From an uncultured bacterium (lineage in GTDB: Bacteria > Patescibacteriota > Gracilibacteria > Absconditabacterales > Absconditicoccaceae), in NCBI GenBank assembly GCA_937862935.1, contig CALMEO010000055.1, forward strand, positions 19,927 to 83,926: 64,000 nucleotides of DNA. Direction: 5' to 3'. How positions within the stretch are numbered: position 1 is the stretch's first letter; every line of letters starts with the position of its first letter. A program made the translations under genes and the position numbers. Under the pieces are notes generated by a model that did no database searches, was not told the origin of the DNA, and saw nothing but the letters and a program-made list of their open reading frames with translations. Positions 51,966 through 63,910 of the stretch are shown here, piece after piece.

Positions 51966-52883
51966 ATGTTAGAATTTAACAAACCTAAATGCCACGTAAT
52001 TGTTAGTCTCAGTGGCGGGATGGACTCAAGTACATTGTTACTTAGATGTCTAAAAGAGTACGATAGTGTAACAGCTATCTCATTTGACTATGGTCAAAAA
52101 CATAGAGTAGAGCTAGAGAAAGCTCAATCATTGGTAGATTACTTAAATTCCACTTTAACCAAAGTAGAAGGACTATCTCAAGAACATCAAGATTTTTTTG
52201 AAGAAAATGGTATAGATGTCGATTCTCTTATAAAAAGTAAAAAACAGGAATACGGACCTATTAAATACCATCAAATTAGGTTAGATGGATTGGTAAACCT
52301 ACTTGATTCAACTTTAGTAACAGGAGGTAAGGATGTACCTGAAGGTCACTATGCTGAAGATAATCAAAAAGCAACTGTTGTACCTAACAGAAATAAGATT
52401 TTTTCATCTATTACTCAAGCGGTAGCTTTATCAATTGCAAATAGAACAGGAGAGACTTGTGATATTGCTTTAGGAATCCATAACGGAGATCACGAAATCT
52501 ATCCGGACTGTAGACAAGAATTTAGAGATGCAGATGATGCTGCCTTTAGAATCGGAAACTGGGATGCTGATAGAGTAGGATTCTTTACTCCGTATTTAGA
52601 AGGAGACAAATTTACTATCTTACAAGATGGAGAAGTATTGTGTACAGAGCTGGGATTAGACTTCAATGAAGTTTATAAAAGAACTAACACTTCTTATAAA
52701 CCATATCCTTCGGGAAATAGTGACTATAAGTCAGCTTCGAGTGTAGAAAGGGTTCTAGCTTTTATTAAATTAGGAGTAGCAGATCCGGTACAATATGAAG
52801 ACGAAACAGGACCAGTAGGGTGGGAAGTAGCAAAAGCTCATGCTATACAGATTGAAGAAGATTTCTTAAAAGAAAATAAATAG
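51966..52883 (+). CDS. queC: QueC-like PP-loop ATPase (7-cyano-7-deazaguanine synthase family), atypical
   Basis: VSLSGGMDSS (SGGxDS), FDYGQKHRVE, VVPNRN and IYPDCRQEF; the C-terminal Zn-Cys cluster is absent. Confidence 0.7.
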   Translation: MLEFNKPKCHVIVSLSGGMDSSTLLLRCLKEYDSVTAISFDYGQKHRVELEKAQSLVDYLNSTLTKVEGLSQEHQDFFEENGIDVDSLIKSKKQEYGPIKYHQIRLDGLVNLLDSTLVTGGKDVPEGHYAEDNQKATVVPNRNKIFSSITQAVALSIANRTGETCDIALGIHNGDHEIYPDCRQEFRDADDAAFRIGNWDADRVGFFTPYLEGDKFTILQDGEVLCTELGLDFNEVYKRTNTSYKPYPSGNSDYKSASSVERVLAFIKLGVADPVQYEDETGPVGWEVAKAHAIQIEEDFLKENK

Positions 52884-52936: not shown

Positions 52937-53623
52937 ATGCATTACGTATATATTACTACAAATCTTATTAACAAGAAATACTATATAGGAAAACATAAAG
53001 GAGAAGTTGATGATAGGTATCTTGGATCAGGAGTAGTTTTAAAGCAAGCTATAGAAAAATACGGAAAAGATAATTTTGAAAAAGAAATCTTAGTAATTTG
53101 TTCAACAGAGGAAGAAGCTAATCACTGGGAGAGAATCACTATACAGGAACATCTATCAGATCCAAACTGCTACAATATCGCCCCAGGAGGAGAGGGAGGT
53201 TATACAATTAAGCATTTTTCTGAAGAAGAAAAACAGAAAGTAAGGCAGAAAGCATCAAAAAGTTATAAACAGTACATAATATCTCACCCAGAGGAAGTAA
53301 AATCTCGGCAGGAGAGACAAAAAGTAACGTTACTTTCCAATATAGAAAATCATAGAAAAGCTGTTAAAGAAGGTCTACTGACGAGATCGGAAGAAGACAA
53401 GAAAGCACAGCATGAAAAGATAACACAGAAAAAATTAGATAACGGATACTACAGTGAATATCAGTTAATAGATCCGGAAGGAAATACGGTAATGCAAAGT
53501 ATTGGAGCAGAAAATATTGCAAAAAAATACGGAGCAACACCTAATGGGATACGATTAGCTGCTAAACACAGACAGCCTATTTCAAGAGGAGTATTAAAAG
53601 GGTATAAAGTAGTAAAAATTTAA
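52937..53623 (+). CDS. GIY-YIG homing endonuclease
   Basis: HYVYITTNLINKKYYIGKH...YLGSG. Confidence 0.85.
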   Translation: MHYVYITTNLINKKYYIGKHKGEVDDRYLGSGVVLKQAIEKYGKDNFEKEILVICSTEEEANHWERITIQEHLSDPNCYNIAPGGEGGYTIKHFSEEEKQKVRQKASKSYKQYIISHPEEVKSRQERQKVTLLSNIENHRKAVKEGLLTRSEEDKKAQHEKITQKKLDNGYYSEYQLIDPEGNTVMQSIGAENIAKKYGATPNGIRLAAKHRQPISRGVLKGYKVVKI

Positions 53624-54444: not shown

Positions 54445-54557
54445 AGTCAGGTGGCGGAAAGGTAAACGCTCACAGGTTGGTATTGTAAAAGAGGAATTGA
54501 CCTCCATCTCCATGTTTTAATGGTTATACCTTACAGGTTCAAATCCTGTCCTGACTA
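54445..54557 (+). tRNA. oversized tRNA-like gene (113 nt), anticodon unresolved
   Basis: Acceptor AGTCAGG/CCTGACT, D arm GCG-GAAAGGTAAA-CGC, T arm ACAGG-TTCAAAT-CCTGT, CAAA trailer; the middle holds a branched GGTAT...ATACC domain with two 6-nt-loop hairpins. Confidence 0.4.
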
Positions 54558-54561
54558 CAAA

Positions 54562-54647
54562 GATCATTTAGTGTAAGTAGCAATTCATGCTCATAGGTAA
54601 CACGGTGTCGTGAACACCAGATGAGAGTTCGAGTCCCTCAATGATCT
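54562..54647 (+). tRNA. aberrant tRNA-like gene (86 nt), anticodon unresolved
   Basis: Acceptor GATCATT/AATGATC, T arm GAGAG-TTCGAGT-CCCTC, CAAAAT trailer; GTGT...ACAC helix encloses a 25-nt loop; GGTGT-CGTGA-ACACC hairpin has a 5-nt loop. Confidence 0.35.
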
Positions 54648-54667
54648 CAAAATAAAATAAAGACTAG

Positions 54668-54696
54668 TTGGTAGTCTGAAAAATTATTCATATATT
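54668..54696 (+). promoter_or_regulatory. sigma70-like TTGGTA-N17-TATATT element (copy A)
   Basis: Exact 17-nt spacing; downstream of the aberrant tRNA pair. Confidence 0.4.
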
Positions 54697-54735
54697 AAAG
54701 TATGATTAAAAGATACATGAAATGGGTAACAGAGC

Positions 54736-54743
54736 CTATTTAT
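54736..54743 (+). promoter_or_regulatory. CTATTTAT box
   Basis: 18 nt upstream of ATG 54761. Confidence 0.45.
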
Positions 54744-54760
54744 ATATAGAACAATAAAAA

Positions 54761-54913
54761 ATGAAAGCAATTCAAAACATACAACAGTTTAAAAGCACAG
54801 CGCATAGAGCCATTCAAGTGGTATCGGATTCGTTATGTGGCGATTTTAGCTGGGATGTAATTCTTGAATCTTCATATAATAACGAACCTAAACTAGGAGG
54901 TACCGAGGTATGA
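54761..54913 (+). CDS. small hypothetical protein (50 aa), not in ORF track
   Basis: CTATTTAT box 18 nt upstream and a rho-independent terminator 30 nt downstream. Confidence 0.45.
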   Translation: MKAIQNIQQFKSTAHRAIQVVSDSLCGDFSWDVILESSYNNEPKLGGTEV

Positions 54914-54943
54914 TATAAGTTCTAAAACATAGACTTATTAAGT

Positions 54944-54976
54944 ACCCGGATCAGAAAAAAGATTCGGGTTTTTTAT
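54944..54976 (+). terminator. rho-independent terminator after the small ORF 54761..54913
   Basis: ACCCGGATC-AGAAAAAA-GATTCGGGT followed by TTTTTT. Confidence 0.75.
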
Positions 54977-54985
54977 TGAAAAAAA

Positions 54986-55057
54986 AGTTGGTAGATTGAA
55001 ATATTATCACTATATTTAAAGTATAGAAATAAGGTCATTGACATATTGGATAAAATT
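54986..55057 (+). repeat. about 72-bp dispersed repeat, copy 1 (promoter-like)
   Basis: About 90 percent identical by eye to 61360..61432; contains TTGGTA-N17-TATATT and TTGACA. Confidence 0.8.
54988..55016 (+). promoter_or_regulatory. sigma70-like TTGGTA-N17-TATATT element (copy B)
   Basis: Follows a terminator; 44 nt upstream of tRNA-Ser; part of a 72-bp repeat. Confidence 0.45.
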
Positions 55058-55059
55058 AA

Positions 55060-55147
55060 GGAGAGTGAAGCAGCGCCATGGAGGTGCGACTAGTCTTGAA
55101 AACTAGGTCCCGTCTTTTCGGGTGGGGTTCGAGTCCTCCGCTCTCCG
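55060..55147 (+). tRNA. tRNA-Ser(UGA)
   Basis: Acceptor GGAGAGT/GCTCTCC, anticodon stem CTAGT/ACTAG, loop CT-TGA-AA, long variable arm CCCG..CGGG, T loop TTCGAGT. Confidence 0.85.
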
Positions 55148-55153
55148 CAATAT

Positions 55154-55225
55154 TGGGTTATAGTGTAATGGTTAGCACAAAACACTTTGGCTGTTTTAGT
55201 CTAGGTTCGAATCCTAGTAAGCCAA
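55154..55225 (+). tRNA. tRNA-Gln(UUG)
   Basis: Acceptor TGGGTTA/TAAGCCA (U1-A72, one G.G mismatch), stem AAACA/TGTTT, loop CT-TTG-GC, T arm CTAGG-TTCGAAT-CCTAG. Confidence 0.8.
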
Positions 55226-55240
55226 CCGAGTGCTGTTTTT

Positions 55241-55273
55241 GTATTTCCTTCCTATTTATTAGAAAGGAAGTAC
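55241..55273 (+). promoter_or_regulatory. hairpin enclosing the promoter box upstream of the GIY-YIG gene
   Basis: GTATTTCCTT pairs with AAGGAAGTAC, 10 bp including one G.U; ATG at 55277. Confidence 0.5.
55252..55259 (+). promoter_or_regulatory. CTATTTAT box inside a hairpin loop
   Basis: 18 nt upstream of the GIY-YIG ATG 55277. Confidence 0.5.
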
Positions 55274-55276
55274 ATC

Positions 55277-55957
55277 ATGGCAAAAAGAGTATACGGTACA
55301 AGAAAAAAATATCATTTTATTTATAAAACTACAAATTTACTAAGTGGAAGATACTATATAGGAATGCATTCAACAGATGACCTGAATGACGGATATTTAG
55401 GATCGGGTACATTATTAAGAAGATCTATAAAAAAGCACGGTAAAGAAAACTTTAAAATAGAGATCTTAGAATTTTTAGATTCAAGGGAAGCTTTAGTAGC
55501 AAGAGAAAAAGAGATCATATCTCTTCAAGAAATTGCTAAGAAAGAATGTATGAATTTAAAAGTAGGAGGAGAAGGAGGATTCTCCAGCGAAGAGCATAAA
55601 CAAAAATTCCTACAAGGACGAGAGTGGGGAAAGCTTTTAGGAGCTAAAACAGGAGGAGATCTTAGACGAGGAGTAGGTTTAGAAAGCACACACAGAGCTC
55701 TGATTAGTTTAAAAATGAAAGAACACTATACAACAAATATAGGACACTTCAGCAATAAAACACATTCAGAACAGACTAAGAAAAAAATGTCAAATGCTAA
55801 AAAAGGAAAAGGATTAGCACAGACTAATTCACAATACGGAACTTGTTGGATCACCGATGAGTATTCCAATAAAAAAATAATAAAAGGAGAAACAATCCCA
55901 GAAGGATGGAGATTAGGAAGAAAAATAAAAAAGCAATCCCTCTGCCACGGGTATTAG
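55277..55957 (+). CDS. GIY-YIG homing endonuclease
   Basis: YHFIYKTTNLLSGRYYIGMH...GYLGSG; C-terminal WITDE...PEGWRLGRKIK; last 10 nt overlap tRNA-Pro. Confidence 0.85.
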   Translation: MAKRVYGTRKKYHFIYKTTNLLSGRYYIGMHSTDDLNDGYLGSGTLLRRSIKKHGKENFKIEILEFLDSREALVAREKEIISLQEIAKKECMNLKVGGEGGFSSEEHKQKFLQGREWGKLLGAKTGGDLRRGVGLESTHRALISLKMKEHYTTNIGHFSNKTHSEQTKKKMSNAKKGKGLAQTNSQYGTCWITDEYSNKKIIKGETIPEGWRLGRKIKKQSLCHGY

Positions 55958-56023
55958 AGGAGTCCGGTCTATCTCGCTGCATTTGGGATGCAGAGCACGC
56001 AGGTTCGAATCCTGCATACCCGA
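55948..56023 (+). tRNA. tRNA-Pro(UGG)
   Basis: Acceptor CGGGTAT/ATACCCG, stem CTGCA/TGCAG, loop TT-TGG-GA, T arm GCAGG-TTCGAAT-CCTGC. Confidence 0.85.
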
Positions 56024-56081
56024 CGAGTGAGACTGTTACTAATTCATAGAACTATAGAGTGTTTGCATAGAATTAGATTAT

Positions 56082-56153
56082 TCCCTCGTAGCAAATCGGT
56101 ATAGGCAATAGACTTTTAATCTATGGGATCAGGTTCAACTCCTGACGGGGGAA
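56082..56153 (+). tRNA. tRNA-Lys(UUU)
   Basis: Acceptor TCCCTCG/CGGGGGA, stem ATAGA/TCTAT, loop CT-TTT-AA, T arm TCAGG-TTCAACT-CCTGA. Confidence 0.8.
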
Positions 56154-56243
56154 CAAAAATCAACTAGTCACTGTAAAACCAGTGGGCGTCAGTAAGTATT
56201 CTGAGCGACGTTTAAATCCTGAAAGCAATTGTTGATTTTATTT

Positions 56244-56314
56244 GCCTCGATGATGTAATGGTAGCGTCGTTGTTTTACATGCAACAGGTGGAAGTTCGAT
56301 TCTTTCTCGAGGTA
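56244..56314 (+). tRNA. tRNA-Val(UAC)
   Basis: Acceptor GCCTCGA/TCGAGGT, stem GTTGT/GCAAC, loop TT-TAC-AT, T arm GGAAG-TTCGATT-CTTTC. Confidence 0.85.
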
Positions 56315-56360
56315 CTGTAGACTTTTTGAAAAGTTAGCCTATTCATTATAAACAGTAGAT
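56315..56360 (+). repeat. conserved GIY-YIG 5' flank, copy 1 (after tRNA-Val)
   Basis: CTGTAGACTTTTTGAAAAGTTAGCCTATTCATT... Confidence 0.9.
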
Positions 56361-57005
56361 ATGGCTAACATCAAAGAGAATAAAAAATACCACTACACTT
56401 ATAAGACAACAAATCTTATAAATGGTAGATATTATCTGGGAATGCACTCAACTAACCGTTTAGATGACGGTTACTTAGGAAGTGGTAAAAGACTTTATTA
56501 TGAATTAAATAAATACGGTAGAGACAATTTTAAGTTTGAACTACTAGAGCAATTTAATTCAAGAGAGGAATTAGTTCAAGCTGAAATTAATCTAATAACA
56601 GAACAAGATTTAAAAAATATAAACTGTTTAAACCTGAGTAAAGGAGGTAGTGGTGGTATTCATAACGAGGATCATTACAAGGCTTTTGTAAAAGGACCTA
56701 AGAATACAAGTGGGTGGATCTTGAACATGAAAAACCTAAAAGCAAACCCAGAATGGGTGAAATGGCATAGGGAATTAGTTATAAAAGGTCTTAGAGAGTA
56801 TTACAAAGTTTCAGAAGGACCTTTTAAAGGTAAGCAACATAAACCTGAGACTATTGAAAAAATGAAAGCGTCTCACAAAGGAGCAGGGAAAGGAACTAAT
56901 AATTCTCAATATGGTACTTGTTGGATTACAAACGAAACAGAAAATAAAAAAAATATACAAAGGAGATCTAATCCCAGAAGGTTGGAGATTGGGACGAAAA
57001 ATTAA
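56361..57005 (+). CDS. GIY-YIG homing endonuclease, C-terminus frameshifted in an A8 run
   Basis: MANIKENKKYHYTYKTTNLINGRYYLGMH; the paralogue-like ending IPEGWRLGRKIK is encoded in the +1 frame after 56946..56953. Confidence 0.75.
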   Translation: MANIKENKKYHYTYKTTNLINGRYYLGMHSTNRLDDGYLGSGKRLYYELNKYGRDNFKFELLEQFNSREELVQAEINLITEQDLKNINCLNLSKGGSGGIHNEDHYKAFVKGPKNTSGWILNMKNLKANPEWVKWHRELVIKGLREYYKVSEGPFKGKQHKPETIEKMKASHKGAGKGTNNSQYGTCWITNETENKKNIQRRSNPRRLEIGTKN

Positions 57006-57012
57006 ATAAACT

Positions 57013-57091
57013 GGGGTTATTGAGCAGGTGGTGAGCTCAGCGGTCTGTAAAATCGTGATTATTCTTGTAGGTTCGATTCCTACTAGCCCCA
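57013..57091 (+). tRNA. tRNA-Tyr(GUA)
   Basis: Acceptor GGGGTTA/TAGCCCC, D arm GAGC..GCTC, stem GCGGT/ATCGT, loop CT-GTA-AA, 10-nt variable region, T arm GTAGG-TTCGATT-CCTAC. Confidence 0.8.
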
Positions 57092-57158
57092 CAGTCAAAT
57101 TTTCTAACGTATGAAAAAACATTCAGTCTTCTAAGTACTAATCGTAACTTAGAAAAAG

Positions 57159-57434
57159 ATGTCAAGAAGTCGAAAAAAACCTTACTGTAAGGATAAGGGA
57201 ATGTCAACACAGGAATATTGGAAAGTTATCCGACATGAGTGGAAACAAACACTAAAACAAAATTATTGGAAAGATAGTTTGTACTTTAGAAACCCTGAGG
57301 AGATAATTAATGATTGGACAAGATGTGATTACATTTGGTTCATTAAAGAAAGTAGACCTTACTGGGGTGATGAAGAACCGATGCACTGGTTTGGATACAC
57401 TAAAGAAGATGTTAAAAAATACTCTAGAAAATAG
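57159..57434 (+). CDS. hypothetical Trp/Lys-rich small protein
   Basis: 91-aa ORF between tRNA-Tyr and tRNA-Phe. Confidence 0.5.
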   Translation: MSRSRKKPYCKDKGMSTQEYWKVIRHEWKQTLKQNYWKDSLYFRNPEEIINDWTRCDYIWFIKESRPYWGDEEPMHWFGYTKEDVKKYSRK

Positions 57435-57441
57435 GGTACTC

Positions 57442-57514
57442 GGAGCAGTGGCAGATCAGGTGATTGCGCTAGTCTGAAAAACTAGAGGAACGAGATCGTT
57501 ACTCGTCTGCTCCA
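57442..57514 (+). tRNA. tRNA-Phe(GAA)
   Basis: Acceptor GGAGCAG/CTGCTCC, stem CTAGT/ACTAG, loop CT-GAA-AA, T arm ACGAG-ATCGTTA-CTCGT (unusual A54/T58). Confidence 0.75.
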
Positions 57515-57626
57515 CAAAGTAGTTCTTGTCCCTTGTAAGGTGTGAAAGAATATATAAACGGTTTTTGCAGGTTCAAATCCTGGGTCTTGCAACTTTTTGC
57601 AAGTAGAACCGTGAGAATTACGAATT

Positions 57627-57698
57627 GGATTGTTAGCTCAGAGGCAGAGCGGTTGTTTGTTAGGCAACGGGTCGGGATTTCGAAATTCCCACAATCCT
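57627..57698 (+). tRNA. tRNA-Asn(GUU)
   Basis: Acceptor GGATTGT/ACAATCC, D arm GCTC-AGAGGCA-GAGC, stem GTTGT/GCAAC, loop TT-GTT-AG. Confidence 0.85.
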
Positions 57699-57704
57699 CA
57701 AAAT

Positions 57705-57776
57705 TGCTCTATCGTATAAAGGTTATTACGGATGACTGTTAATCATTTTATCTAGGTTCAAGTCCTAGTGGAGCAG
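57705..57776 (+). tRNA. tRNA-Asn(GUU), second copy with a divergent body
   Basis: Acceptor TGCTCTA/TGGAGCA, stem GATGA/TCATT, loop CT-GTT-AA, T arm CTAGG-TTCAAGT-CCTAG. Confidence 0.65.
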
Positions 57777-57897
57777 CAAGGGGTGTTAGTATCTCCTGAC
57801 GGGTTTAGATGTGTAACTTTCCCTCCAACAACTAACATTATAATTGGATTAATAAGGAACAACTCTTCGTAAGGTTATCAGATTAAACGTTACAACT

Positions 57898-57969
57898 GCT
57901 CCTATAGTAGAATGGTTAGCACACATCTCTGATAAGGATGAAATGGAGGTTCAATTCCTTCTAGGAGTA
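57898..57969 (+). tRNA. tRNA-Ile(GAU)
   Basis: Acceptor GCTCCTA/TAGGAGT, stem CATCT/GGATG, loop CT-GAT-AA, T arm GGAGG-TTCAATT-CCTTC. Confidence 0.8.
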
Positions 57970-57976
57970 CAGAAAT

Positions 57977-58063
57977 GGAGAATAGTCTAATATTGGTTTG
58001 TAGTGGCATCCTGCTAAGATGTTCCTGGTAAAACAGGTGAGAGTTCGATTCTCTTGTTCTCCG
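57977..58063 (+). tRNA. tRNA-Ser(GCU)
   Basis: Acceptor GGAGAAT/GTTCTCC, stem GCATC/GATGT, loop CT-GCT-AA, variable arm CCTG-GTAAAA-CAGG, T loop TTCGATT. Confidence 0.85.
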
Positions 58064-58192
58064 CAAAAACCTGTTCCCCGTCCTCACAAAGCATCTAAGG
58101 AATGCAGGAGTAGAATAGTACGTTCGGGGCCTTGTGGTAGGACACTTTAAAATCTAAAGTACAAAGATAAGTTAACAGGTTCTTATCAAATT

Positions 58193-58261
58193 GCCGAAGG
58201 ATCAGGTGATCGAGAATGGCTCATATCCGTTTTCAGGGTGGATCGTTACCACTCTTCGGTA
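58193..58261 (+). tRNA. tRNA-Met(CAU) (or Ile2/lysidine type), compact 69 nt
   Basis: Acceptor GCCGAAG/CTTCGGT, stem AATGG/CCGTT, loop CT-CAT-AT, T arm GGTGG-ATCGTTA-CCACT, short D arm. Confidence 0.65.
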
Positions 58262-58363
58262 CAAAAAATATCTAGGTAACAACCTGAGTTAAAGAAAGAA
58301 CTGGTTCACTCCTTCGTAATATTGTAACCCGCGGCTACAAAAAAGAAGAGGTATTTTTTACAC

Positions 58364-58437
58364 GGTGTATGTAGCTAAATGGTAAAGCGCTTGATTGTGG
58401 TTCAAGTCATTTGCGGGTTCAAGTCCCGTCGTACACC
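58364..58437 (+). tRNA. tRNA-His(GUG) with encoded G-1
   Basis: G-1 opposite C73, acceptor GTGTATG/CGTACAC, stem CTTGA/TCAAG, loop TT-GTG-GT, T arm GCGGG-TTCAAGT-CCCGT. Confidence 0.85.
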
Positions 58438-58571
58438 CAACAAATTAAGAAAAAGCTAATGGAGCTGTAAGTTAATAAGCAACCGGGATGGTGGATTTAA
58501 TCCTGGTGCGAAAAGTAAAACCAGAGGGATAAGTCCAATAAAAACCTCAAAAACTTACCTTAATTTTAAAT

Positions 58572-58644
58572 GCCTCTGTGGTGGAATGGAAGACACAACG
58601 AGTTTAAGCCTCGTACGCTGCAGGTTCGACTCCTGTCAGAGGTA
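58572..58644 (+). tRNA. tRNA-Leu(UAA) with a short (5-nt) variable loop
   Basis: Acceptor GCCTCTG/CAGAGGT, Leu-type D arm GTG-GAATGGAAGA-CAC, stem ACGAG/CTCGT, loop TT-TAA-GC, variable ACGCT, A73. Confidence 0.75.
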
Positions 58645-58896
58645 CAAAAAATTAAAGTGACGGAATTAGACGTTAAGAGAGATGAAGTGTTTATAACATC
58701 AGGTTGCGACTGGTGTATGTAAAACCAAGTTAAACTACCGTTAACTAAGTTTCTAGTACGAAGATTGATCCTCGTCGCAGAAGAAGTAGTATTAGAGATG
58801 TACCACAGGGGTTATAGACAATTATAACTGTTGGGTTTAGGTCGAAATGTTTAACATGTAGGTACCCAGTCCTACCTTTAATTTTTATTAACTATT

Positions 58897-59193
58897 ATGA
58901 AAGAGTTACCAGATACATTTAAGGAGTATATCATATATCAGTTAGAATATGGTAAAATCAAGATGTGTAGTGCATTTACTAGTCTGTTTTTTCATAAAGG
59001 ATATACAGGATTTAGGTACAGAGAGGTCTACAGTTTAGTGCAAGATGAAATTAGGAGATTTCGTACTGAAGAAGGTGTAAAAAGGAAGGAACAAGAACGT
59101 CTGTTAGAGGAAAAGAAACGGATGGCTAATCAACAGAGAAGTCTAAGTATGAAACGTTATTGGGAGCATAAGAAAAATTTCAAACAGGTTTAA
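58897..59193 (+). CDS. hypothetical small basic protein
   Basis: 98-aa ORF within the tRNA island. Confidence 0.5.
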   Translation: MKELPDTFKEYIIYQLEYGKIKMCSAFTSLFFHKGYTGFRYREVYSLVQDEIRRFRTEEGVKRKEQERLLEEKKRMANQQRSLSMKRYWEHKKNFKQV

Positions 59194-59269
59194 ACACTAA
59201 AGAAGTAAATTATTTAAACTCAAGGAATCGGGCATATGAAAAAGTGACTTCTAACTTAATGTTAAAAAT

Positions 59270-59341
59270 GGTCCTATAGTTTAATTGGAAAAATTTAAGA
59301 ATACGAATCTTAGGTTAGGGGTTCGAATCCTCTTAGGACTT
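59270..59341 (+). tRNA. tRNA-Arg(ACG)
   Basis: Acceptor GGTCCTA/TAGGACT, stem TAAGA/TCTTA, loop AT-ACG-AA, T arm AGGGG-TTCGAAT-CCTCT. Confidence 0.8.
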
Positions 59342-59352
59342 CAAAAAAGATT

Positions 59353-59423
59353 GCCCTATTAGTTTAACGGAAGAACATATCTCTTCTAAAGATAGAGTCT
59401 TGGTTCGAGTCCAAGATGGGGTT
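59353..59423 (+). tRNA. tRNA-Arg(UCU)
   Basis: Acceptor GCCCTAT/ATGGGGT, stem TATCT/AGATA, loop CT-TCT-AA, T arm CTTGG-TTCGAGT-CCAAG. Confidence 0.8.
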
Positions 59424-59427
59424 CAAT

Positions 59428-59487
59428 ATATATGTAAAAACATATAAAAAAGTTAATATTAGGTAATTTATATGTTTTTACATATAT
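59428..59487. repeat. perfect 21-bp inverted repeat with an 18-nt spacer
   Basis: ATATATGTAAAAACATATAAA (59428..59448) versus TTTATATGTTTTTACATATAT (59467..59487). Confidence 0.9.
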
Positions 59488-59503
59488 CTAAAAATTTACT
59501 AAT

Positions 59504-59574
59504 ACGTCAGTGGTGTAATGGTAACATACCGGTCTCCAAAACCGACGATAAGAGTTCGAATCTCTTTTGACGTG
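59504..59574 (+). tRNA. tRNA-Trp(CCA)
   Basis: Acceptor ACGTCAG/TTGACGT, anticodon arm CCGGT-CTCCAAA-ACCGA (as in bacterial tRNA-Trp), T arm AAGAG-TTCGAAT-CTCTT. Confidence 0.8.
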
Positions 59575-59618
59575 CTGTAGACTTTTTGAAAAGTTAGCCT
59601 ATTTATTGAAAAATAAGT
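59575..59618 (+). repeat. conserved GIY-YIG 5' flank, copy 2 (after tRNA-Trp)
   Basis: CTGTAGACTTTTTGAAAAGTTAGCCTATTTATT... Confidence 0.9.
59599..59606 (+). promoter_or_regulatory. CTATTTAT box
   Basis: 13 nt upstream of the GIY-YIG ATG 59619. Confidence 0.5.
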
Positions 59619-60269
59619 ATGGCTAACATCAAAGAGAATAAAAAATATCATTTTACATATAAGACAACAAATCTTATAAACAAAAGGTATTACTTAGGGA
59701 TGCATTCAACTAACCGTTTAGATGACGGATATATAGGAAGCGGTAAAAGACTTTATTACGAATTAAACAAATACGGTAAAGAGAATTTTAAATTTGAAAT
59801 ACTAAAACAGTTTAATTCAAGGGAGCAGTTAGTTGAAGCTGAAACAAGCTTAATAAGTGAAGAAGTTTTGAAAGATCCAAACTGTCTTAACATGGTAGTA
59901 GGAGGTTCAGGAGGAAATGTAGGTAAAGGAGGAGAGCACTTAGGAGGAGATTGCTGGGCAGCTGCTAATAAATATTGGAAAACAGAAGAAGGATTCAAAA
60001 AGAAATCAGAGACTGCAAAAAAAGTAGCTAAGAGAAGAATACAAGAGGGTACTTGGAATGTCTTTCAAAAAGGAAACCAGGTATGGAAAGGAAGAAAGCA
60101 TACACCTGAGACTATTGAAAAAATGAAAGAGACAAAAAAAGGTCATGGGAAAGGTATAAATAATTCACAATTTGGAAAATGTTGGATAACTAACGAAGTT
60201 GAAAGTAAGAAAATTCACAAAGGAGAACTAATTCCAGAAGGATGGAGATTAGGCCGAAAGATAAAATAA
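59619..60269 (+). CDS. GIY-YIG homing endonuclease
   Basis: MANIKENKKYHFTYKTTNLINKRYYLGMH...GYIGSG; ends PEGWRLGRKIK. Confidence 0.85.
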   Translation: MANIKENKKYHFTYKTTNLINKRYYLGMHSTNRLDDGYIGSGKRLYYELNKYGKENFKFEILKQFNSREQLVEAETSLISEEVLKDPNCLNMVVGGSGGNVGKGGEHLGGDCWAAANKYWKTEEGFKKKSETAKKVAKRRIQEGTWNVFQKGNQVWKGRKHTPETIEKMKETKKGHGKGINNSQFGKCWITNEVESKKIHKGELIPEGWRLGRKIK

Positions 60270-60329
60270 CTTTGGCATGAAAAAAGAATTTGATGCTCAC
60301 TAGGTTTATTAACCTAAAAGTGAGCAAAA

Positions 60330-60515
60330 ATGCGAATTAAACATTATACTAACAGAGAGTATAAAAAACAAAAACGTAGAGAGTATCCGGAATGGGATAA
60401 ATGGTTTGAGGATAACTGGAGTAAAAAGTCTAAAATATGGGCTTTCAAGTACAGAGAATACAGAACATGGAAACATAGCCGAAAAACTCAATACAAAACT
60501 AAATTGTTTCATTAA
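60330..60515 (+). CDS. hypothetical small basic protein
   Basis: 61-aa Lys/Arg/Trp-rich ORF. Confidence 0.4.
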   Translation: MRIKHYTNREYKKQKRREYPEWDKWFEDNWSKKSKIWAFKYREYRTWKHSRKTQYKTKLFH

Positions 60516-60526
60516 AAAAGGAAATC

Positions 60527-61033
60527 ATGAGTAAGTACAGAAAAACACTCGTAGTGGATTCAAGCTTTATTGCAAGAAGCATTATACCTGCTGAAAGAGC
60601 ATTCGTGATTTCATATAAAGGTAATGCTGAAGTAATTGCTGATCACCCAGAATCGTTTGGGTTAGTAAATCCTGAATTAGACATTAAAAAACCTTCAATC
60701 ATCAGGGTTTTTAAGTTTGTAAAGCAAAACATTCTAAAAGTACCTCTTACAAGAGAGAATATCTACAGAAGAGATAATTATGAATGTGTTTACTGTGGAA
60801 GTGATAATGTCAAAACATTAACATTGGACCACGTAATACCTCAATCAAAAGGAGGAAAAGACAGTTGGGATAATCTAGTTACAGCTTGTAAAAGATGCAA
60901 TGGTGAAAAGTCAGACTTAACATTAGAGGAATATGGAAAAGAAATTCCAACTCCATACCGTCCACATTACTTAATGTTAATGAAACAGATGCATGACATC
61001 CCAGAAGAATGGAAACATTTTTTATTATTTTAG
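60527..61033 (+). CDS. HNH endonuclease
   Basis: CVYCGS...LDHVIPQSKGGKDSWDNLVTACKRCNGEKSD. Confidence 0.85.
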   Translation: MSKYRKTLVVDSSFIARSIIPAERAFVISYKGNAEVIADHPESFGLVNPELDIKKPSIIRVFKFVKQNILKVPLTRENIYRRDNYECVYCGSDNVKTLTLDHVIPQSKGGKDSWDNLVTACKRCNGEKSDLTLEEYGKEIPTPYRPHYLMLMKQMHDIPEEWKHFLLF

Positions 61034-61036
61034 GAT

Positions 61037-61195
61037 ATGGAATTTTACAAAATAGGTAACACAAAACTTGAATTAGGATTTCGTAAGCTGTTACAAATGT
61101 CAGACAGAAAAGCTAGAATAGAAGGAATTGAAAAACTAACAAAAACCAAAATTATTATTGAAAATAATAATGTATTTATAATATGGTTAAAATAA
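61037..61195 (+). CDS. small hypothetical protein (52 aa), not in ORF track
   Basis: ATG 4 nt after the HNH gene stop. Confidence 0.35.
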   Translation: MEFYKIGNTKLELGFRKLLQMSDRKARIEGIEKLTKTKIIIENNNVFIIWLK

Positions 61196-61270
61196 AACAC
61201 CTGCTACGTAGTCACTACAGGACAATACGTACAGACAGGGAAGAAAAGATCAGCCCAGGTGTTTTAAATT

Positions 61271-61340
61271 GGCTTGTCTGGTCTTGGAGGCCGGTTGGAT
61301 TGCAAACCCAATAGAGACAGTTCGATTCTGTCACAAGCCT
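61271..61340 (+). tRNA. tRNA-Cys(GCA)
   Basis: Acceptor GGCTTGT/ACAAGCC, loop TT-GCA-AA, T arm GACAG-TTCGATT-CTGTC, U73 discriminator. Confidence 0.8.
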
Positions 61341-61359
61341 CAAAAAGAGTTTTAAAAAT

Positions 61360-61432
61360 AGTTGGTAGATTAAAATATTATCACTATATTAAAAGTATAA
61401 TAATAAGGTCATTGACATATTGGATAAAATTT
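61360..61432 (+). repeat. about 72-bp dispersed repeat, copy 2
   Basis: See 54986..55057. Confidence 0.8.
61362..61390 (+). promoter_or_regulatory. sigma70-like TTGGTA-N17-TATATT element (copy C)
   Basis: Part of the 72-bp repeat, upstream of the Leu-Thr-Gly-Glu tRNA run. Confidence 0.45.
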
Positions 61433-61654
61433 AAGACATTAAATTAACATAGTCGTCACTAGCAGGCGTATTAATCTTTCCGTTATAGACTAAGCGGTCG
61501 TAATGTAGTGTTACATCTCAATAAAACGAGATTGGATCCGATTTAGAAACAAGTACATGTTTCCTTATCTGATTTGGAGTAACTCCTTAGGATGCTTTTT
61601 TAAAGATTGAATATTTTAGGTAATCCAATTCCTATTGACTATGTTAATTAAAAT

Positions 61655-61728
61655 TGCTCCGGTGGTGGAATTGGTAGACACGCTTGACTTAGGATCAAGA
61701 TATTGAGGGTTCGAATCCCTCCTGGAGT
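61655..61728 (+). tRNA. tRNA-Leu(UAG) with a short (5-nt) variable loop
   Basis: Acceptor GCTCCGG/CTGGAGT, canonical Leu D arm GTG-GAATTGGTAGA-CAC, stem CTTGA/TCAAG, loop CT-TAG-GA, variable ATATT, A73. Confidence 0.75.
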
Positions 61729-61800
61729 ACAAAATTAGAGTTAGCTTATAGTAAAGCACCTGAAAAGGATAACGGATACGAAAACCGGCTCTAATTAATT

Positions 61801-61872
61801 TGCCGCTAAAGCATAAAAGGTGATGCACTTGTTTTGTACACAAGACAACGGAGTTCGATTCTTCGTAGCGGC
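61801..61872 (+). tRNA. tRNA-Thr(UGU)
   Basis: Acceptor GCCGCTA/TAGCGGC, D arm GCAT..ATGC, stem CTTGT/ACAAG, loop TT-TGT-AC. Confidence 0.85.
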
Positions 61873-61879
61873 TCAAAAA

Positions 61880-61951
61880 TGCGAATGTCGTATAATGGAT
61901 ATTATTTTTGACTTCCAATCAAAAGATGGCAGTTCGATTCTGCTCATTCGC
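61880..61951 (+). tRNA. tRNA-Gly(UCC)
   Basis: Acceptor GCGAATG/CATTCGC, stem TTTGA/TCAAA, loop CT-TCC-AA, T arm GGCAG-TTCGATT-CTGCT. Confidence 0.85.
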
Positions 61952-62079
61952 TCAAAATTTACCTCAGAGAGGATAAGTTGTGAGGCTACCGTACCTTGGC
62001 ACTTACAACCGTAATGGGGACTTGCAAGGTCTTTAATCCCAAGAGTAAAAGGACGTGAGGGATTGGGTAAATTTTTAAC

Positions 62080-62151
62080 TGCTACCGTCGTCTAACGGCT
62101 AGGACATAACACTTTCACTGTTAAAAAGAGGGTTCGATTCCCTTCGGTAGT
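62080..62151 (+). tRNA. tRNA-Glu(UUC)
   Basis: Acceptor GCTACCG/CGGTAGT, D arm GTCT..GGAC, stem TAACA/TGTTA, loop CT-TTC-AC. Confidence 0.85.
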
Positions 62152-62218
62152 ACAATGTACTTTTTTCATAATTGATTTATTTAATGTAAATTGATATTTA
62201 TTTTTAAATAAATCAATT

Positions 62219-63769
62219 ATGAAGAAGTTAATTACATTAATTTTGTTAATACTTACAACATTAACATACAGTCAAAATAACCTGGTGGTTGATTATTCAC
62301 CAAGTTCTGAAGTAATTGCAAACCCTGAGAGAGGTTTTCACAAATTTACAGAAACCACTTCTACAAGTTACAGTTTTCTTAATCAAACTAGTTTAAATGG
62401 GTACAGAACAGGTGTTGATAAAATTACCATGGTCTATAGAGGGTTTTACCTAGAGAGTTTCATGAATTCATCAATAAGTCAAGCATACTTAAGTAATATG
62501 CAAACAGACTTTAGTACTTTGAGAAATGCTGGGGTAAAAGCAACTATTAGGTTTGGGTATTACACAAGTTCACAAACAGGACCATACCAACCGTCTAAAG
62601 CACAGATAATATCACATATACAACAGTTAGCTCCAATTATAAACTCCAATAAAGATGTTATACTTTCTATTCAAATAGGGTTTATTGGTAGATGGGGCGA
62701 GTATTATTATACAAATTCAACAGAGTTTGGAAATGGAGACTATACAGCATATACATCACTACAATGGCAAAATAGGAAAGAAGTTTTAGATGCATGTTTT
62801 AGTAATTTTGACAGTTCTATTTTTATACAGTTAAGATACCCTTATGCTAAAACAAAAATGTATGGAAACGTTTACATTCCAAGACTGGGGTATTTTAATG
62901 ATGCTTTTTTAAATGTATATGGTGATGAAGGGTTTTTTCCTATTTGTCAAACATGTACTCCAAGTCAGTCTCAAATAAATGAGGTGATTCTGCAGACGGA
63001 AAACAATCCAATGACGGGTGAAACAAACTCAGTAAATTCCCTGACAAATGGAACAAATGCAATAACACAAATGGATTTGTTTAATTGGAGTATAATAAAT
63101 AGAGATTATTATCCGCAAGCGATACAACAGTGGCAGACTGATGGAAGTTTTAGTACTATAATTAATAGGCTTGGTTATAGGTTTAAATTAAATAAAGGAA
63201 TCTATTACCTAAATAATAATGTTTTAGATGTAAATATTTCAACTTCTAATGAAGGTTTTTCAAAAATACTTAAAGAAAAGAATGTTAACATTATTTTAAA
63301 GAGTAGTTTAAATACCTATTACTTTCCATTAGAATATAATGTTAAGAATTGGGGAAATAACATCATAGAAAGTATAAATATTTCCGGGATAATAGATGGA
63401 GTGTATAATGTATATTTAGAGATAGTTGACAAAGATTTACCCAACAATGTTAACTATAAAGTACATTTAGCTAACTCTAACATATGGGATTCAGTTAATG
63501 GATACAATGATTTGAAGTTTACCATAAACAAATCCGGTTCAGGTAGTTTAGGAAATGTGTTAAATTCAATTCCCACTTTAAATGTATATCCAAATCCAAC
63601 TACAGGTATTGTGTATTTACCTTATAAGCTAAGTTATAAGGTGTATAACAGTAATAACAAACTTATAAAAAGTGGTACAGGTACACAGGTTAATATTTCA
63701 AATAAACCGAATGGTATTTACTTTTTAAAGATAGAAGGATTTCAAACAATAAAGATAATCAAACAGTAA
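62219..63769 (+). CDS. secreted DUF4874/DUF4832-like putative glycoside hydrolase with T9SS C-terminal sorting domain
   Basis: Signal peptide MKKLITLILLILTTLTYSQ; NPERGF and GFIGRWGEYYY motifs; C-terminus LNVYPNPTTGIVYL...NGIYFLKIEGFQTIKIIKQ. Confidence 0.65.
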   Translation: MKKLITLILLILTTLTYSQNNLVVDYSPSSEVIANPERGFHKFTETTSTSYSFLNQTSLNGYRTGVDKITMVYRGFYLESFMNSSISQAYLSNMQTDFSTLRNAGVKATIRFGYYTSSQTGPYQPSKAQIISHIQQLAPIINSNKDVILSIQIGFIGRWGEYYYTNSTEFGNGDYTAYTSLQWQNRKEVLDACFSNFDSSIFIQLRYPYAKTKMYGNVYIPRLGYFNDAFLNVYGDEGFFPICQTCTPSQSQINEVILQTENNPMTGETNSVNSLTNGTNAITQMDLFNWSIINRDYYPQAIQQWQTDGSFSTIINRLGYRFKLNKGIYYLNNNVLDVNISTSNEGFSKILKEKNVNIILKSSLNTYYFPLEYNVKNWGNNIIESINISGIIDGVYNVYLEIVDKDLPNNVNYKVHLANSNIWDSVNGYNDLKFTINKSGSGSLGNVLNSIPTLNVYPNPTTGIVYLPYKLSYKVYNSNNKLIKSGTGTQVNISNKPNGIYFLKIEGFQTIKIIKQ

Positions 63770-63837
63770 TTAAACCATATACCGGTTTTAATAATACATT
63801 GAAAGCATGTAGAATTGAAGTCGAGGTACTGTAAAAT

Positions 63838-63910
63838 GGGTCGGTAGCATAAATGGCAAATGCGCTTGATTTGCAATCAGGAAGATTGGGTTCGAATCCC
63901 ACCGTATCCA
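63838..63910 (+). tRNA. tRNA-Ala(UGC) with an imperfect acceptor stem
   Basis: G1-C72, G2-C71, G3.U70 and U4-A69 are present; the inner acceptor pairs need a bulged T; D arm GCAT..ATGC; loop TT-TGC-AA. Confidence 0.65.

Follow-up and report, generated by a model that had tools for sequence, protein, structure and literature searches.

Short-arm leucine tRNAs in described systems

The identity set described for bacterial LeuRS consists of A73, A14, A15-U48 and G18G19 (PMC9976931). The Escherichia coli enzyme requires A73 and tertiary elements, not the variable arm, and an arm-less minimal tRNALeu is still charged (PMC9976931); in the account given there, the minimalist E. coli tRNALeu of Larkin et al. 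2002, made without the variable and anticodon arms, is both charged and edited by LeuRS. Such constructs need A73 and the D/T tertiary contacts, which is exactly the set kept in the phage genes described here, although they are laboratory molecules whose decoding is untried while the phage genes are natural. Animal mitochondrial tRNA-Leu, in which A73 and A14 are identity elements (PMC9976931), resembles the phage genes in its short variable loop. However, mitochondrial tRNAs are generally reduced and have a dedicated mitochondrial LeuRS, whereas the phage tRNAs have a full canonical elbow (G18G19 and T-loop) and presumably must rely on the bacterial LeuRS of the host.

The type I tRNALeu(CAA) of Streptomyces coelicolor also has a short variable loop and coexists, as would the window genes, with a bacterial LeuRS. 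It is charged by its own LeuRS (Fan et al. 2019, PMC6614811) and not by that of E. coli (PMC6614811), and with the Streptomyces enzyme, replacing a long loop by a short one brings kcat/Km down to 14% (PMC6614811). Losing the arm can thus carry a cost, and not every LeuRS accepts such a tRNA. The Streptomyces gene is chromosomal and the one short isoacceptor of five, whereas in the phage array neither of the two Leu genes has a long arm; leucylation of the Streptomyces tRNA was measured, while the window genes are likened to it by architecture and not by sequence.

Proteins acting on variable arms have been described as well. PtuAB (retron-Eco7 and Septu) cleaves the tRNA-Tyr variable loop, and the tRNA-Tyr of phage T5 is resistant (PMC13096335), while MenT3 relies on the arm of tRNA-Ser (PMC11541572). 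For AbiEii, a preference for class II tRNAs is probable. T5 tRNA-Tyr is a phage class II tRNA that defeats the nuclease through a variable region unlike that of its host, which makes it the model for an evasion reading of short-arm Leu genes. However, in T5 the Tyr arm is altered and the effect is experimental, while in our case the Leu arm is deleted and evasion is hypothetical.

A phage tRNA array with two short tRNA-Leu genes

The 64,000-nt stretch of DNA analyzed here (the window) belongs to a T4-like phage of a Bacteroidota host. Its tRNA array has every tRNA and tRNA-like element on the + strand, with the two tRNA-like elements at its head and genes for GIY-YIG and HNH homing endonucleases scattered through it. 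The features considered are the following.

54445-63910, + strand, tRNA array holding the Leu genes: 21 tRNAs called by ARAGORN, the probable Ser(UGA) and two tRNA-like elements
55061-55145, + strand, probable tRNA-Ser(UGA): Rfam tRNA-Sec match, variable stem-loop CCCGUCUUUUCGGGU retained
57013-57091, + strand, tRNA-Tyr(GUA): ARAGORN, Rfam 50.3 bits, variable region 10 nt
57977-58064, + strand, tRNA-Ser(GCU): ARAGORN, full variable stem-loop (15 nt by ARAGORN parse)
58572-58644, + strand, tRNA-Leu(UAA): 73 nt to A73; ARAGORN, Rfam tRNA, MFE fold, orthologue L367
61656-61729, + strand, tRNA-Leu(UAG): 74 nt to A73; ARAGORN, Rfam tRNA, MFE fold, masked-core match

The lack of the class II long arm in both Leu genes was confirmed as a real feature. 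Each cloverleaf has an acceptor stem of 7 bp, a D stem of 3 bp (GTG/CAC), anticodon and T stems of 5 bp and A73, with all invariant tRNA positions present, and the 5 nt that the sequence-only reading had placed between the anticodon and T stems (ACGCT in the UAA gene, ATATT in the UAG gene) are seen in cloverleaves and MFE folds alike. ARAGORN delimits the genes at 58572-58645 and 61656-61730, and the Rfam tRNA model RF00005 (gathering score 29) matches positions 58572-58644 with 55.8 bits and 61656-61729 with 64.6 bits, both over model 1-71. The two genes exceed the curated threshold across the full model, with scores among the top ones in the array. The location and 73-nt length first given for the UAA gene agree with both programs; for the UAG gene the 74-nt length was right and the placement (61655..61728) one base off. 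A long-arm alternative fold was excluded, as 73 and 74 nt leave no space for it and the MFE structure of each gene reproduces the cloverleaf, its variable loop of 5 nt included.

In other respects both genes look like class II tRNA-Leu, with a Leu anticodon (NAG or YAA), A73, U48 as the final T of the variable loop (the partner of A15), and a D arm with a 3-bp stem and a 10-11-nt loop containing A14, A15 and G18G19. Their 5 nt fall short of the class II arm, a stem-loop of ~12 nt or more, and the Leu anticodon, 4-5-nt variable loop and otherwise complete cloverleaf are those of a type I tRNA-Leu. The elements read by bacterial LeuRS (A73, A14, A15-U48, G18G19 and the class II D arm) are retained despite the loss of the arm, as had been proposed. 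The D arm is GTG-GAATGGAAGA-CAC in tRNA-Leu(UAA) and GTG-GAATTGGTAGA-CAC in tRNA-Leu(UAG), the two loops having initially been assigned the other way round. This arm had been taken as characteristic of leucine; it is present, yet it is weaker evidence than assumed, since in viral contigs a Leu-type D loop with short spacing belongs mostly to tRNA-His and tRNA-Gln (46 His and 13 Gln among 121 matches to the short-spacing pattern with D loop GGAATTGGTAGAC). Both genes have G1-U72.

The neighboring class II tRNAs behave differently. The variable region of tRNA-Tyr, GAUUAUUCUU, which can be read as a 2-bp stem with a tetraloop, has the 10 nt originally reported and measures 10-11 nt in related phages versus mostly 12-14 nt in other viral arrays. 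The full arm reported for both tRNA-Ser genes also held. The gene at 55061-55145 was not called by ARAGORN and scores 36.3 bits against the Rfam tRNA-Sec model, under its gathering score of 47; its anticodon loop, CUUGAAA, suggests Ser(UGA).

Descent from class II tRNA-Leu

We compared the tRNA cores, with variable region and anticodon masked, among 2,692 tRNAs, and the nearest neighbors of both Leu genes were almost all Leu. Median identity was 0.73 to bacterial Leu versus 0.56 to non-Leu for tRNA-Leu(UAG), and 0.66 versus 0.54 for tRNA-Leu(UAA). The core of the UAG gene reached its maximum, 82%, with class II tRNA-Leu from two sources, a Flavobacteriales MAG (L255) and Plebeiibacterium (L272), while none of the remaining window tRNAs exceeds 63-67% identity with the two Leu genes. 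An orthologue of tRNA-Leu(UAA) with a 97% identical core is found in a related phage (L367, 14100-14173).

Related phages were defined through QueC (65-80% amino-acid identity), and the variable regions of their 11 Leu genes measure 4, 4, 5, 5, 5, 5, 5, 7, 11, 11 and 11 nt, none of the 11 reaching 12 nt. The tRNA-Leu(UAG) genes of two of these phages, one with 11 nt (L368) and one with 5 nt (L367), have the acceptor stem in common. The window genes, which lack the arm, differ in this region from Leu genes of Flavobacteriales, Flavobacteriaceae and Crocinitomicaceae (L252, L255, L266 and L291; 10-15 nt by ARAGORN parse), taken here as stand-ins for the host. The Leu-like masked core, together with the graded arm lengths in relatives, argues for a stepwise deletion of the arm rather than an anticodon switch.

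Functional constraint

We aligned 80 different short-arm Leu genes drawn from many viral contigs; 98.1% of the cloverleaf cells were paired, with double changes in 19 of 20 pairs. Compensatory cells numbered 610 versus 162 +/- 11 after shuffling, and the observed values were reached in 0 of 500 shuffles. Among 97 unique viral short Leu genes, A73 was kept in 93, U48 in 92 and the D-loop GG in 96, with a D loop of 10-11 nt in 90 and a D stem of 3 bp in 78; identity elements are thus retained at rates that match bacterial class II Leu (A73 in 115/120, U48 in 120/120). The strong compensatory covariation and the conserved LeuRS determinants indicate that short Leu genes are functional. As these 80 genes covary as a cloverleaf and the orthologues in related phages are short as well, the short arm of the window genes is not a chance feature.

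Occurrence in viral arrays and bacterial genomes

Loss of the Leu arm is not confined to this window. In a sample of viral contigs chosen by a tandem T-loop pattern, regardless of Leu, a variable loop of 4-7 nt was found in 38/106 Leu, 0/79 Ser and 1/41 Tyr genes; leaving out the tRNAs inside the matched pair, the same arrays gave 26/79, 0/49 and 1/25. Leu lengths in viral arrays have a bimodal distribution that peaks at 5 nt and 12-15 nt, few genes lying between, and a long arm is retained in 56 of the 106 genes and also in T5. None of 126 Leu genes from bacterial genomes, picked by one D-loop/T-loop pattern, had a variable region of 9 nt or less (range, 10-17 nt). The tandem T-loop pattern applied to unfiltered metagenome contigs gave 17 short genes among 57 Leu genes, which ties the trait to dense tRNA arrays, phage or cellular. 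Fifteen viral arrays contain short Leu genes next to longer ones, and in these no anticodon was common to both kinds; the short genes therefore do not duplicate the longer ones.

Cultured phages

Short Leu genes are also present in cultured phages, namely Felix O1-like (Felixounavirus heid, on E. coli K-12) and Bxz1-like phages (Bixzunavirus ET08/Bxz1 type), Certrevirus CR3 (on Cronobacter), Sixamavirus Sixama, Pogseptimavirus PG07, Aeromonas phage Akh-2 (compared by length only) and Lightbulbvirus phi4:1 (on Cellulophaga baltica). Their hosts include E. coli, Salmonella, Cronobacter, Vibrio, Aeromonas, Mycobacterium and Gordonia. As in the window, the variable region is ~4-7 nt, the D arm is of class II type, A73 is present, and Ser and Tyr remain long beside the short Leu; several of the genes are 75-81% identical to the UAG gene over the full length. 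These phages are spread over different families and over different phyla of hosts. The nearest cultured relative, phi4:1, has one Leu with a 6-nt loop and another with a mini-arm of 10-11 nt.

The sequence-only reading had held short-arm tRNA-Leu to be otherwise mitochondrial, which is wrong in view of the S. coelicolor gene, the cultured phages and roughly one-third of the Leu genes in viral arrays. We found no comment on short-arm Leu in the phage papers of the literature searched, where the genes are annotated without remark, and arm loss in phage tRNA clusters is common though apparently undescribed.

Origin of the short arm

We consider it quite probable that the two genes encode working phage leucine tRNAs of class II descent, in which the arm was lost stepwise because LeuRS tolerates it and the remainder stayed under selection. 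The ancestor would be an ordinary bacterial-type class II tRNA-Leu, whose arm of 4-5 bp would have passed through an 11-nt mini-hairpin and a 7-nt stage to the canonical class I loop of 4-5 nt, the rest of the tRNA being kept under selection as the arm eroded. The loss would be tolerated because recognition by bacterial LeuRS depends on A73 and the elbow of D and T loops (A14, A15-U48, G18G19) rather than on the arm; Ser keeps its arm because SerRS needs it, and Tyr is merely trimmed because TyrRS touches it. The pattern of arm loss across the three tRNAs follows synthetase requirements. Judging from these elements, we infer that both tRNAs are expressed and charged with leucine by the host LeuRS, in which case the UAA gene would read UUR and the UAG gene CUN, covering all six Leu codons.

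It is extremely improbable that the genes are decaying pseudogenes that still resemble tRNAs. Phage arrays do hold pseudo-tRNAs and tRNA-like elements, including the two in this one, but perfect cloverleaves with every invariant position, the covariation across 80 genes and some of the best Rfam scores of the array speak against decay here. An origin from class I tRNAs of a different isotype, through a switch to Leu anticodons, is very improbable too: the abundance of viral His and Gln genes with the same D loop and short spacing would suit it, whereas the masked-core neighbors are Leu, bacterial class II Leu at 82% among them, close relatives have orthologues with 11-nt mini-arms (one pair with a common acceptor stem), A73 and U48 are retained, and the other tRNAs of the window are distant. 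Nor do we find it at all likely that identity has changed, with another synthetase or no charging leading to recoded or stalled UUR/CUN codons or to a non-decoding role. E. coli LeuRS refuses the Streptomyces type I tRNALeu, the Leu-type D arm in viral tRNA-His and tRNA-Gln tells that this body is not bound to one identity, and the UAA gene has an atypical anticodon loop. Against this, A73, A14, A15-U48 and G18G19 are conserved at the class II Leu rate, the core has its nearest neighbors among Leu tRNAs, short Leu genes in mixed arrays have anticodons of their own, and the genes of the phage use UUR and CUN as ordinary and abundant Leu codons (TTA 50%, TTG 9% and CTN 41% of the 1,370 Leu codons in the window).

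The working-tRNA explanation is compatible with more than one driver of the loss. Selection may have removed the arm because it gives a hold to proteins that attack class II tRNAs or mark them, whether these proteins belong to host anti-phage defense or to a shut-off of host tRNA by the phage itself, so that the armless phage tRNA-Leu would work on while host tRNA-Leu is disabled; we regard this as possible but less likely than not. Arm-reading effectors exist, phages of three or more host phyla show the loss while conserving the rest of the tRNA, lengths are bimodal and Tyr is trimmed too in this clade. However, the effectors known from the literature searched act on Tyr and Ser, none being found for the bacterial tRNA-Leu arm; more than half of the viral-array Leu genes keep a long arm; bimodality follows from structural constraint alone; and Ser, with the same expected exposure, is never shortened, for which its dependence on SerRS suffices without any defense. 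Relaxed constraint fits equally well, the computed data agreeing with selection and tolerated decay alike. The broader claim of a recurrent adaptation in phage arrays appears rather unlikely to us. It would make class I-type tRNA-Leu, in about one-third of array Leu genes and in phages of Bacteroidota, Pseudomonadota and Actinomycetota, invisible to arm-recognizing proteins such as AbiE/MenT-type nucleotidyltransferases, PtuAB-type nucleases or the phage's own host-tRNA shut-off, Leu being the sole class II tRNA able to shed its arm because bacterial LeuRS ignores it. We lean towards relaxed constraint with a deletion or compaction bias in phage tRNA genes, to which escape from arm-reading proteins may have added some gain. 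The original proposal as a whole, that shortening keeps LeuRS recognition while removing a target for nucleases or modification enzymes, is partly supported.

Implications

Phage tRNA arrays are a large exception that concerns Leu only, in which the arm goes where the synthetase ignores it. They offer a natural experiment on the role of the tRNA-Leu arm and a testable link to newly found anti-phage systems acting on variable arms, as short-arm Leu is present in phages growing on E. coli K-12, Salmonella, M. smegmatis and Cellulophaga. For annotation, phage tRNA-Leu genes of 73-75 nt to A73 (76-78 nt with encoded CCA) should not be taken for errors or pseudogenes.

The anticodon loop sets the two window genes apart. 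G37 had been listed as kept in both, together with A73; A73 stands, while G37 is the bacterial norm for the UAG gene only (anticodon loop CUUAGGA). The loop of tRNA-Leu(UAA) is UUUAAGC, with G37 and C38, and deviates from the CUUAAAA found in 15/15 bacterial genes, so modification and decoding of this tRNA may differ from the bacterial ones.

Two tRNA-Leu genes without the class II arm

Both tRNA-Leu genes belong to a + strand tRNA array that extends from about 54.4 to 63.9 kb and comprises 21 genes called by ARAGORN and extra matches found only with Rfam. The Leu, Ser, and Tyr genes of the array are as follows.

55061-55145 (+), tRNA-Ser(UGA), stem-loop arm kept; Rfam tRNA-Sec model at 36.3 bits, under its gathering score of 47
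57013-57091 (+), tRNA-Tyr, variable region of 10 nt
57977-58064 (+), tRNA-Ser(GCU), stem-loop arm kept
58572-58644 (+), tRNA-Leu(UAA), Rfam tRNA model end to end, 55.8 bits; called by ARAGORN
61656-61729 (+), tRNA-Leu(UAG), Rfam tRNA model end to end, 64.6 bits; called by ARAGORN

The tRNA-Ser(UGA) gene was not called by ARAGORN and was assigned from its anticodon loop, CUUGAAA. The short arm of both tRNA-Leu genes, first noticed in a sequence-only reading, was borne out by the full-length Rfam matches, the ARAGORN cloverleaf, and the minimum-free-energy fold; the 10-nt variable region of tRNA-Tyr and the arms of both tRNA-Ser genes also stood. That reading had placed the UAA gene correctly and the UAG gene one base off, and had swapped the order of the two D loops. 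In the ARAGORN cloverleaf, both Leu genes have a 7-bp acceptor stem with G1-U72, a D arm with a 3-bp stem (GTG/CAC) and a loop of 10 nt or 11 nt, anticodon and T stems of 5 bp, A73, and a variable loop of 5 nt (ACGCT and ATATT). The minimum-free-energy fold of each gene is this same 5-nt-loop cloverleaf instead of the alternative long-arm fold that the sequence-only reading had allowed for, which is impossible since the genes are only 73 and 74 nt long. The window genes differ from class II tRNA-Leu in one defining feature, the long arm, which they lack, and they fit the structural definition of the type I tRNA-Leu of animal mitochondria and S. coelicolor. In the long ORFs of the window, TTA makes up half of the leucine codons and CTN 41%, so the two anticodons, UAA and UAG, cover the needs of the phage.

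G37, also proposed as a leucine mark, is typical for the UAG gene and not for the UAA gene. The anticodon loop of the latter (58603-58609) is UUUAAGC, with U32, G37, and C38, a loop seen in only 8 of 113 viral Leu(UAA) genes, while all 15 sampled bacterial genes have CUUAAAA. With UUUAAGC, the A36-A37-A38 motif on which i6A37 modification relies is lost. Among Leu(UAG) genes, A37 (CUUAGAA) occurs in 38/125 viral genes and G37 in 22/22 bacterial ones.

Occurrence in phages and bacteria

Short-arm tRNA-Leu had been considered otherwise mitochondrial, a rarity that does not hold, given the type I tRNA-Leu of S. coelicolor and the full-length matches (75-81%) that blastn of the UAG gene gave to annotated tRNA-Leu genes of 74-75 nt in unrelated phages. 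A search seeded with the gene of phage CR3 returned 179 phage records. Ser genes, and Tyr genes where present, stay long in the arrays of the six cultured phages tabulated below. T5, whose tRNA-Leu(UAG) keeps a long arm and has an annotated length of 85 nt, was rejected as a precedent.

Table. Short Leu genes in cultured phages (phage; host; number)
Certrevirus CR3; Cronobacter; 2
Pogseptimavirus PG07; Vibrio; 2
Sixama; Gordonia; 3 (annotated lengths)
Akh-2; Aeromonas; 1 (annotated length)
Felixounavirus heid; E. coli K-12; 3
Bixzunavirus ET08 (Bxz1 type); M. smegmatis; 3

Frequencies were taken from a sample without selection on Leu, namely viral contigs with two T loops in tandem, in which a variable region of ≤7 nt was counted as short. 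This sampling was adopted because the short/long ratio of D-loop-pattern scans was uninformative: the viral and bacterial scans gave at least 120 matches each, the viral ones being mostly host-like long-arm Leu, and the single short match among the viral matches listed (locus L008) was a tRNA-Gln.

Table. Short genes in the tandem T-loop viral sample (isotype; all; matched tRNA pair excluded)
Leu; 38/106; 26/79
Ser; 0/79; 0/49
Tyr; 1/41 (one more of 8 nt); 1/25

Strict Leu-type criteria, namely A73, a 3-bp D stem, and a D loop of ≥10 nt, retain 29 of the 38 short Leu genes. Leu variable lengths in this sample have a bimodal distribution, peaking at 5 nt and again at 12-15 nt, with a shoulder at 10-11 nt. 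Arrays with both short and longer Leu genes number 15, and in none of them does the same anticodon occur in both kinds. None of 126 bacterial Leu genes had a variable region of ≤9 nt (120 loci among the matches listed, in species-representative genomes, chosen by one D-loop/T-loop pattern), and short Leu in viruses versus bacteria gives a Fisher's exact p of ~1e-15. The tandem T-loop pattern applied to unfiltered metagenome contigs gave 17 short genes among 57 Leu, mostly in dense and possibly viral arrays, for which reason these contigs were rejected as a cellular baseline. The safest statement is that dense phage-type tRNA arrays commonly carry short-arm Leu and that none of the sampled, ordinary bacterial Leu genes is of this kind.

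Conservation of the short genes

The 97 unique short-arm sequences from all fetched loci (variable region of ≤7 nt) keep A73 in 93 cases, U48 in 92, GG in the D loop in 96, a D loop of 10-11 nt in 90, and a 3-bp D stem in 78; the sampled bacterial class II Leu genes have A73 and U48 at the same rates (115/120 and 120/120). The identity set of E. coli LeuRS consists of A73, A14, A15-U48, and G18G19, and the arm is not needed (PMC9976931). When 80 short Leu genes were aligned on the cloverleaf, 98.1% of cells in its stems were paired, double changes appeared in 19 of 20 pairs, and compensatory cells numbered 610 versus 162 ± 11 after shuffling, with none of 500 shuffles as high. Control structures slid by 1-3 columns were only 35-46% paired, and this poor pairing together with the strong covariation rules out that the short genes are pseudogenes.

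G1-U72, present in both window genes, is the commonest top pair of short-arm Leu (52/93, alignment A1); it occurs in 62/188 viral long-arm and 26/115 sampled bacterial Leu genes. Position 9 is A in about one-third of short Leu genes and almost never in long ones.

Origin of the armless form

A short Leu gene could derive from a class II Leu gene by loss of the arm or from a class I tRNA by an anticodon switch. With the variable region and anticodon masked, the nearest neighbors of both window genes among 2,692 tRNAs were nearly all Leu tRNAs, long and short armed. In this comparison, the UAG gene shares 82% identity with the class II Leu of a Flavobacteriales MAG (L255) and with that of Plebeiibacterium (L272). 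Median masked identity to bacterial Leu is 0.73 for UAG and 0.66 for UAA, against 0.56 and 0.54 to non-Leu tRNAs, and the remaining window tRNAs reach at most 0.63-0.67 to the two Leu genes. In phages with a related QueC (65-80% amino acid identity), the variable regions of 11 Leu genes measure 4, 4, 5, 5, 5, 5, 5, 7, 11, 11, and 11 nt, and a full-length arm is absent from all 11. The 11-nt regions are mini-hairpins, e.g., GGCGUAAGCUU and CGCUUAUGCGU, which we read as 2-3 bp closing a tetraloop, and the acceptor stem is the same in the tRNA-Leu(UAG) genes of two comparison loci, L368 (11 nt) and L367 (5 nt). In Cellulophaga phage phi4:1, the variable region measures 6 nt in one Leu gene and 10-11 nt in another. 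This 11/7/6/5/4-nt series and the shared acceptor stem argue for a class II Leu gene that lost its arm in steps, and the graded lengths in relatives disfavor the anticodon switch.

The D arm, previously called characteristic of leucine, was rejected as proof of identity: a scan of viral contigs for GGAATTGGTAGAC followed by a T loop 26-30 nt on gave 121 short-spacing matches, in which the loop was found mostly in tRNA-His (46) and tRNA-Gln (13), with only 27 Leu. Viral tRNA-His(GUG) in loci L019, L095, and L110 and tRNA-Gln in L011, L031, and L037 have this D arm with its 3-bp stem. One tRNA body could be reused for several identities in phages.

Charging and possible causes of arm loss

Across phages, Leu is often armless, Tyr is sometimes trimmed, and Ser never is. 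TyrRS contacts the arm of tRNA-Tyr. Bacterial LeuRS reads A73 and the elbow, the main identity element for SerRS is the arm, and bacterial tRNA-Tyr is likewise class II with a long arm (PMC9976931). The pattern of arm loss is in line with what each synthetase tolerates. On the best-supported reading, the window genes are working leucine decoders, for which we infer charging by the host LeuRS, and their arm, presumably dispensable, was then deleted. Counter-evidence on charging comes from Streptomyces, whose type I tRNALeu is not charged by E. coli LeuRS, and with the Streptomyces enzyme, efficiency fell to 14% after a swap from a long to a short loop (PMC6614811). A Pfam scan of 30 of the larger window ORFs, the remainder of the phage genome falling outside the window, found no LeuRS, other synthetase, or tRNA repair enzyme gene.

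Two drivers could account for the loss: decay that was tolerated while phage genes were biased toward deletion and compaction, or selection for escape from proteins that read the arm. [quoted passage not shown] None of the three is known to act on the tRNA-Leu arm. The computed data fit decay and escape alike, and nothing computed separates them.

In a 2023 review, animal mitochondria are still given as the only setting in which the Leu arm is missing (PMC9976931). The identical short-arm architecture can already be found, unremarked, in many deposited phage records. We found no description of short-arm Leu tRNAs in phages, or of a phage-wide pattern, in the full-text literature, where subscription journals are thinly covered, and targeted reading of the Felix O1 genome paper, the Sf14 paper, a viral tRNA survey, and a paper on anticodon-loop evasion turned up no mention either. 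The interest lies in the general phage-wide pattern rather than in the window itself.

tRNA-like elements

Two further elements precede the canonical genes.

54445-54557 (+), tRNA-like element, Rfam tRNA 38.5 bits; two small hairpins replace the anticodon and variable arms
54562-54647 (+), second tRNA-like element of 86 nt, Rfam tRNA 30.8 bits; not called by ARAGORN

The acceptor stem, D arm, and T arm of the first are Leu-type, and A73 is present; this element was rejected as a hidden third, long-arm Leu gene because it has no anticodon arm. Copies of its family occur in comparison loci L367 (11857-11968), L369 (12402-12503), L039 (1052-1124 and 1702-1814), L098 (5904-5976), L075 (11845-11957), L009 (1376-1480, -), and L232 (2050-2138 and 2686-2776, -). 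They span 73-113 nt and share a nearly fixed shell (acceptor stem AGTCAGG/CCTGACT followed by discriminator A, Leu-type D arm, and T arm ACAGG-TTCRAAT-CCTGT) around a middle that is wholly different among copies and has no anticodon arm. The features that LeuRS reads are precisely those retained in the window copy, so it could conceivably be an RNA that is charged but does not decode, or a decoy. The second element has good acceptor and T arms and a 23-nt insertion in the D region.

Phage genome and host

The window codes for a T4-type portal, a Gp23 capsid protein, a tail sheath, a family A polymerase, DnaB, ribonucleotide reductase, QueC, several GIY-YIG and HNH homing endonucleases, and one protein with a type IX secretion sorting domain, and we read it as part of the genome of a large, T4-like myovirus that infects Bacteroidota. 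The host is indicated by that sorting domain, C-terminal on a 516-aa protein inside the tRNA array (62219-63769, +) that also has DUF4874 and DUF4832 and is apparently cargo, a secreted protein of host-like character. The sole near DNA match among cultured phages is the tRNA-Pro of Cellulophaga phages phi4:1 and phi17:2. The QueC homologue (51966-52883, +) lies just upstream of the array, has 286 related viral stretches, and suggests 7-deazaguanine chemistry in the phage.

The array contains or adjoins at least five GIY-YIG genes and one HNH gene.

50007-50696, GIY-YIG (SegE-like, NUMOD3)
52937-53623, GIY-YIG (SegE-like, NUMOD3)
55277-55957, GIY-YIG (SegE-like, NUMOD3)
56361-57005, GIY-YIG, SegE_GIY-YIG below the Pfam cut-off (19.9 vs 25 bits)
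59619-60269, GIY-YIG, SegE_GIY-YIG below the Pfam cut-off (21.2 vs 25 bits)
60527-61033, HNH homing endonuclease
about 63957, start of a further GIY-YIG gene

A conserved junction of ~60 nt joins each of three homing endonuclease genes to a preceding tRNA (repeats D3 and D7, at 56293, 59553, and 63889), with a fourth, weaker copy at 62131, an arrangement that recalls SegB in the tRNA region of T4/T6. A sigma-70 promoter scan around the window tRNA genes gave no enrichment over shuffles, as expected for a Bacteroidota host, for which this consensus is uninformative. A 90-nt direct repeat (54980-55069 and 61354-61443, 89% identical) lies upstream of two tRNA sub-clusters, its second copy ~210 nt before tRNA-Leu(UAG), and may be a phage promoter or processing element.
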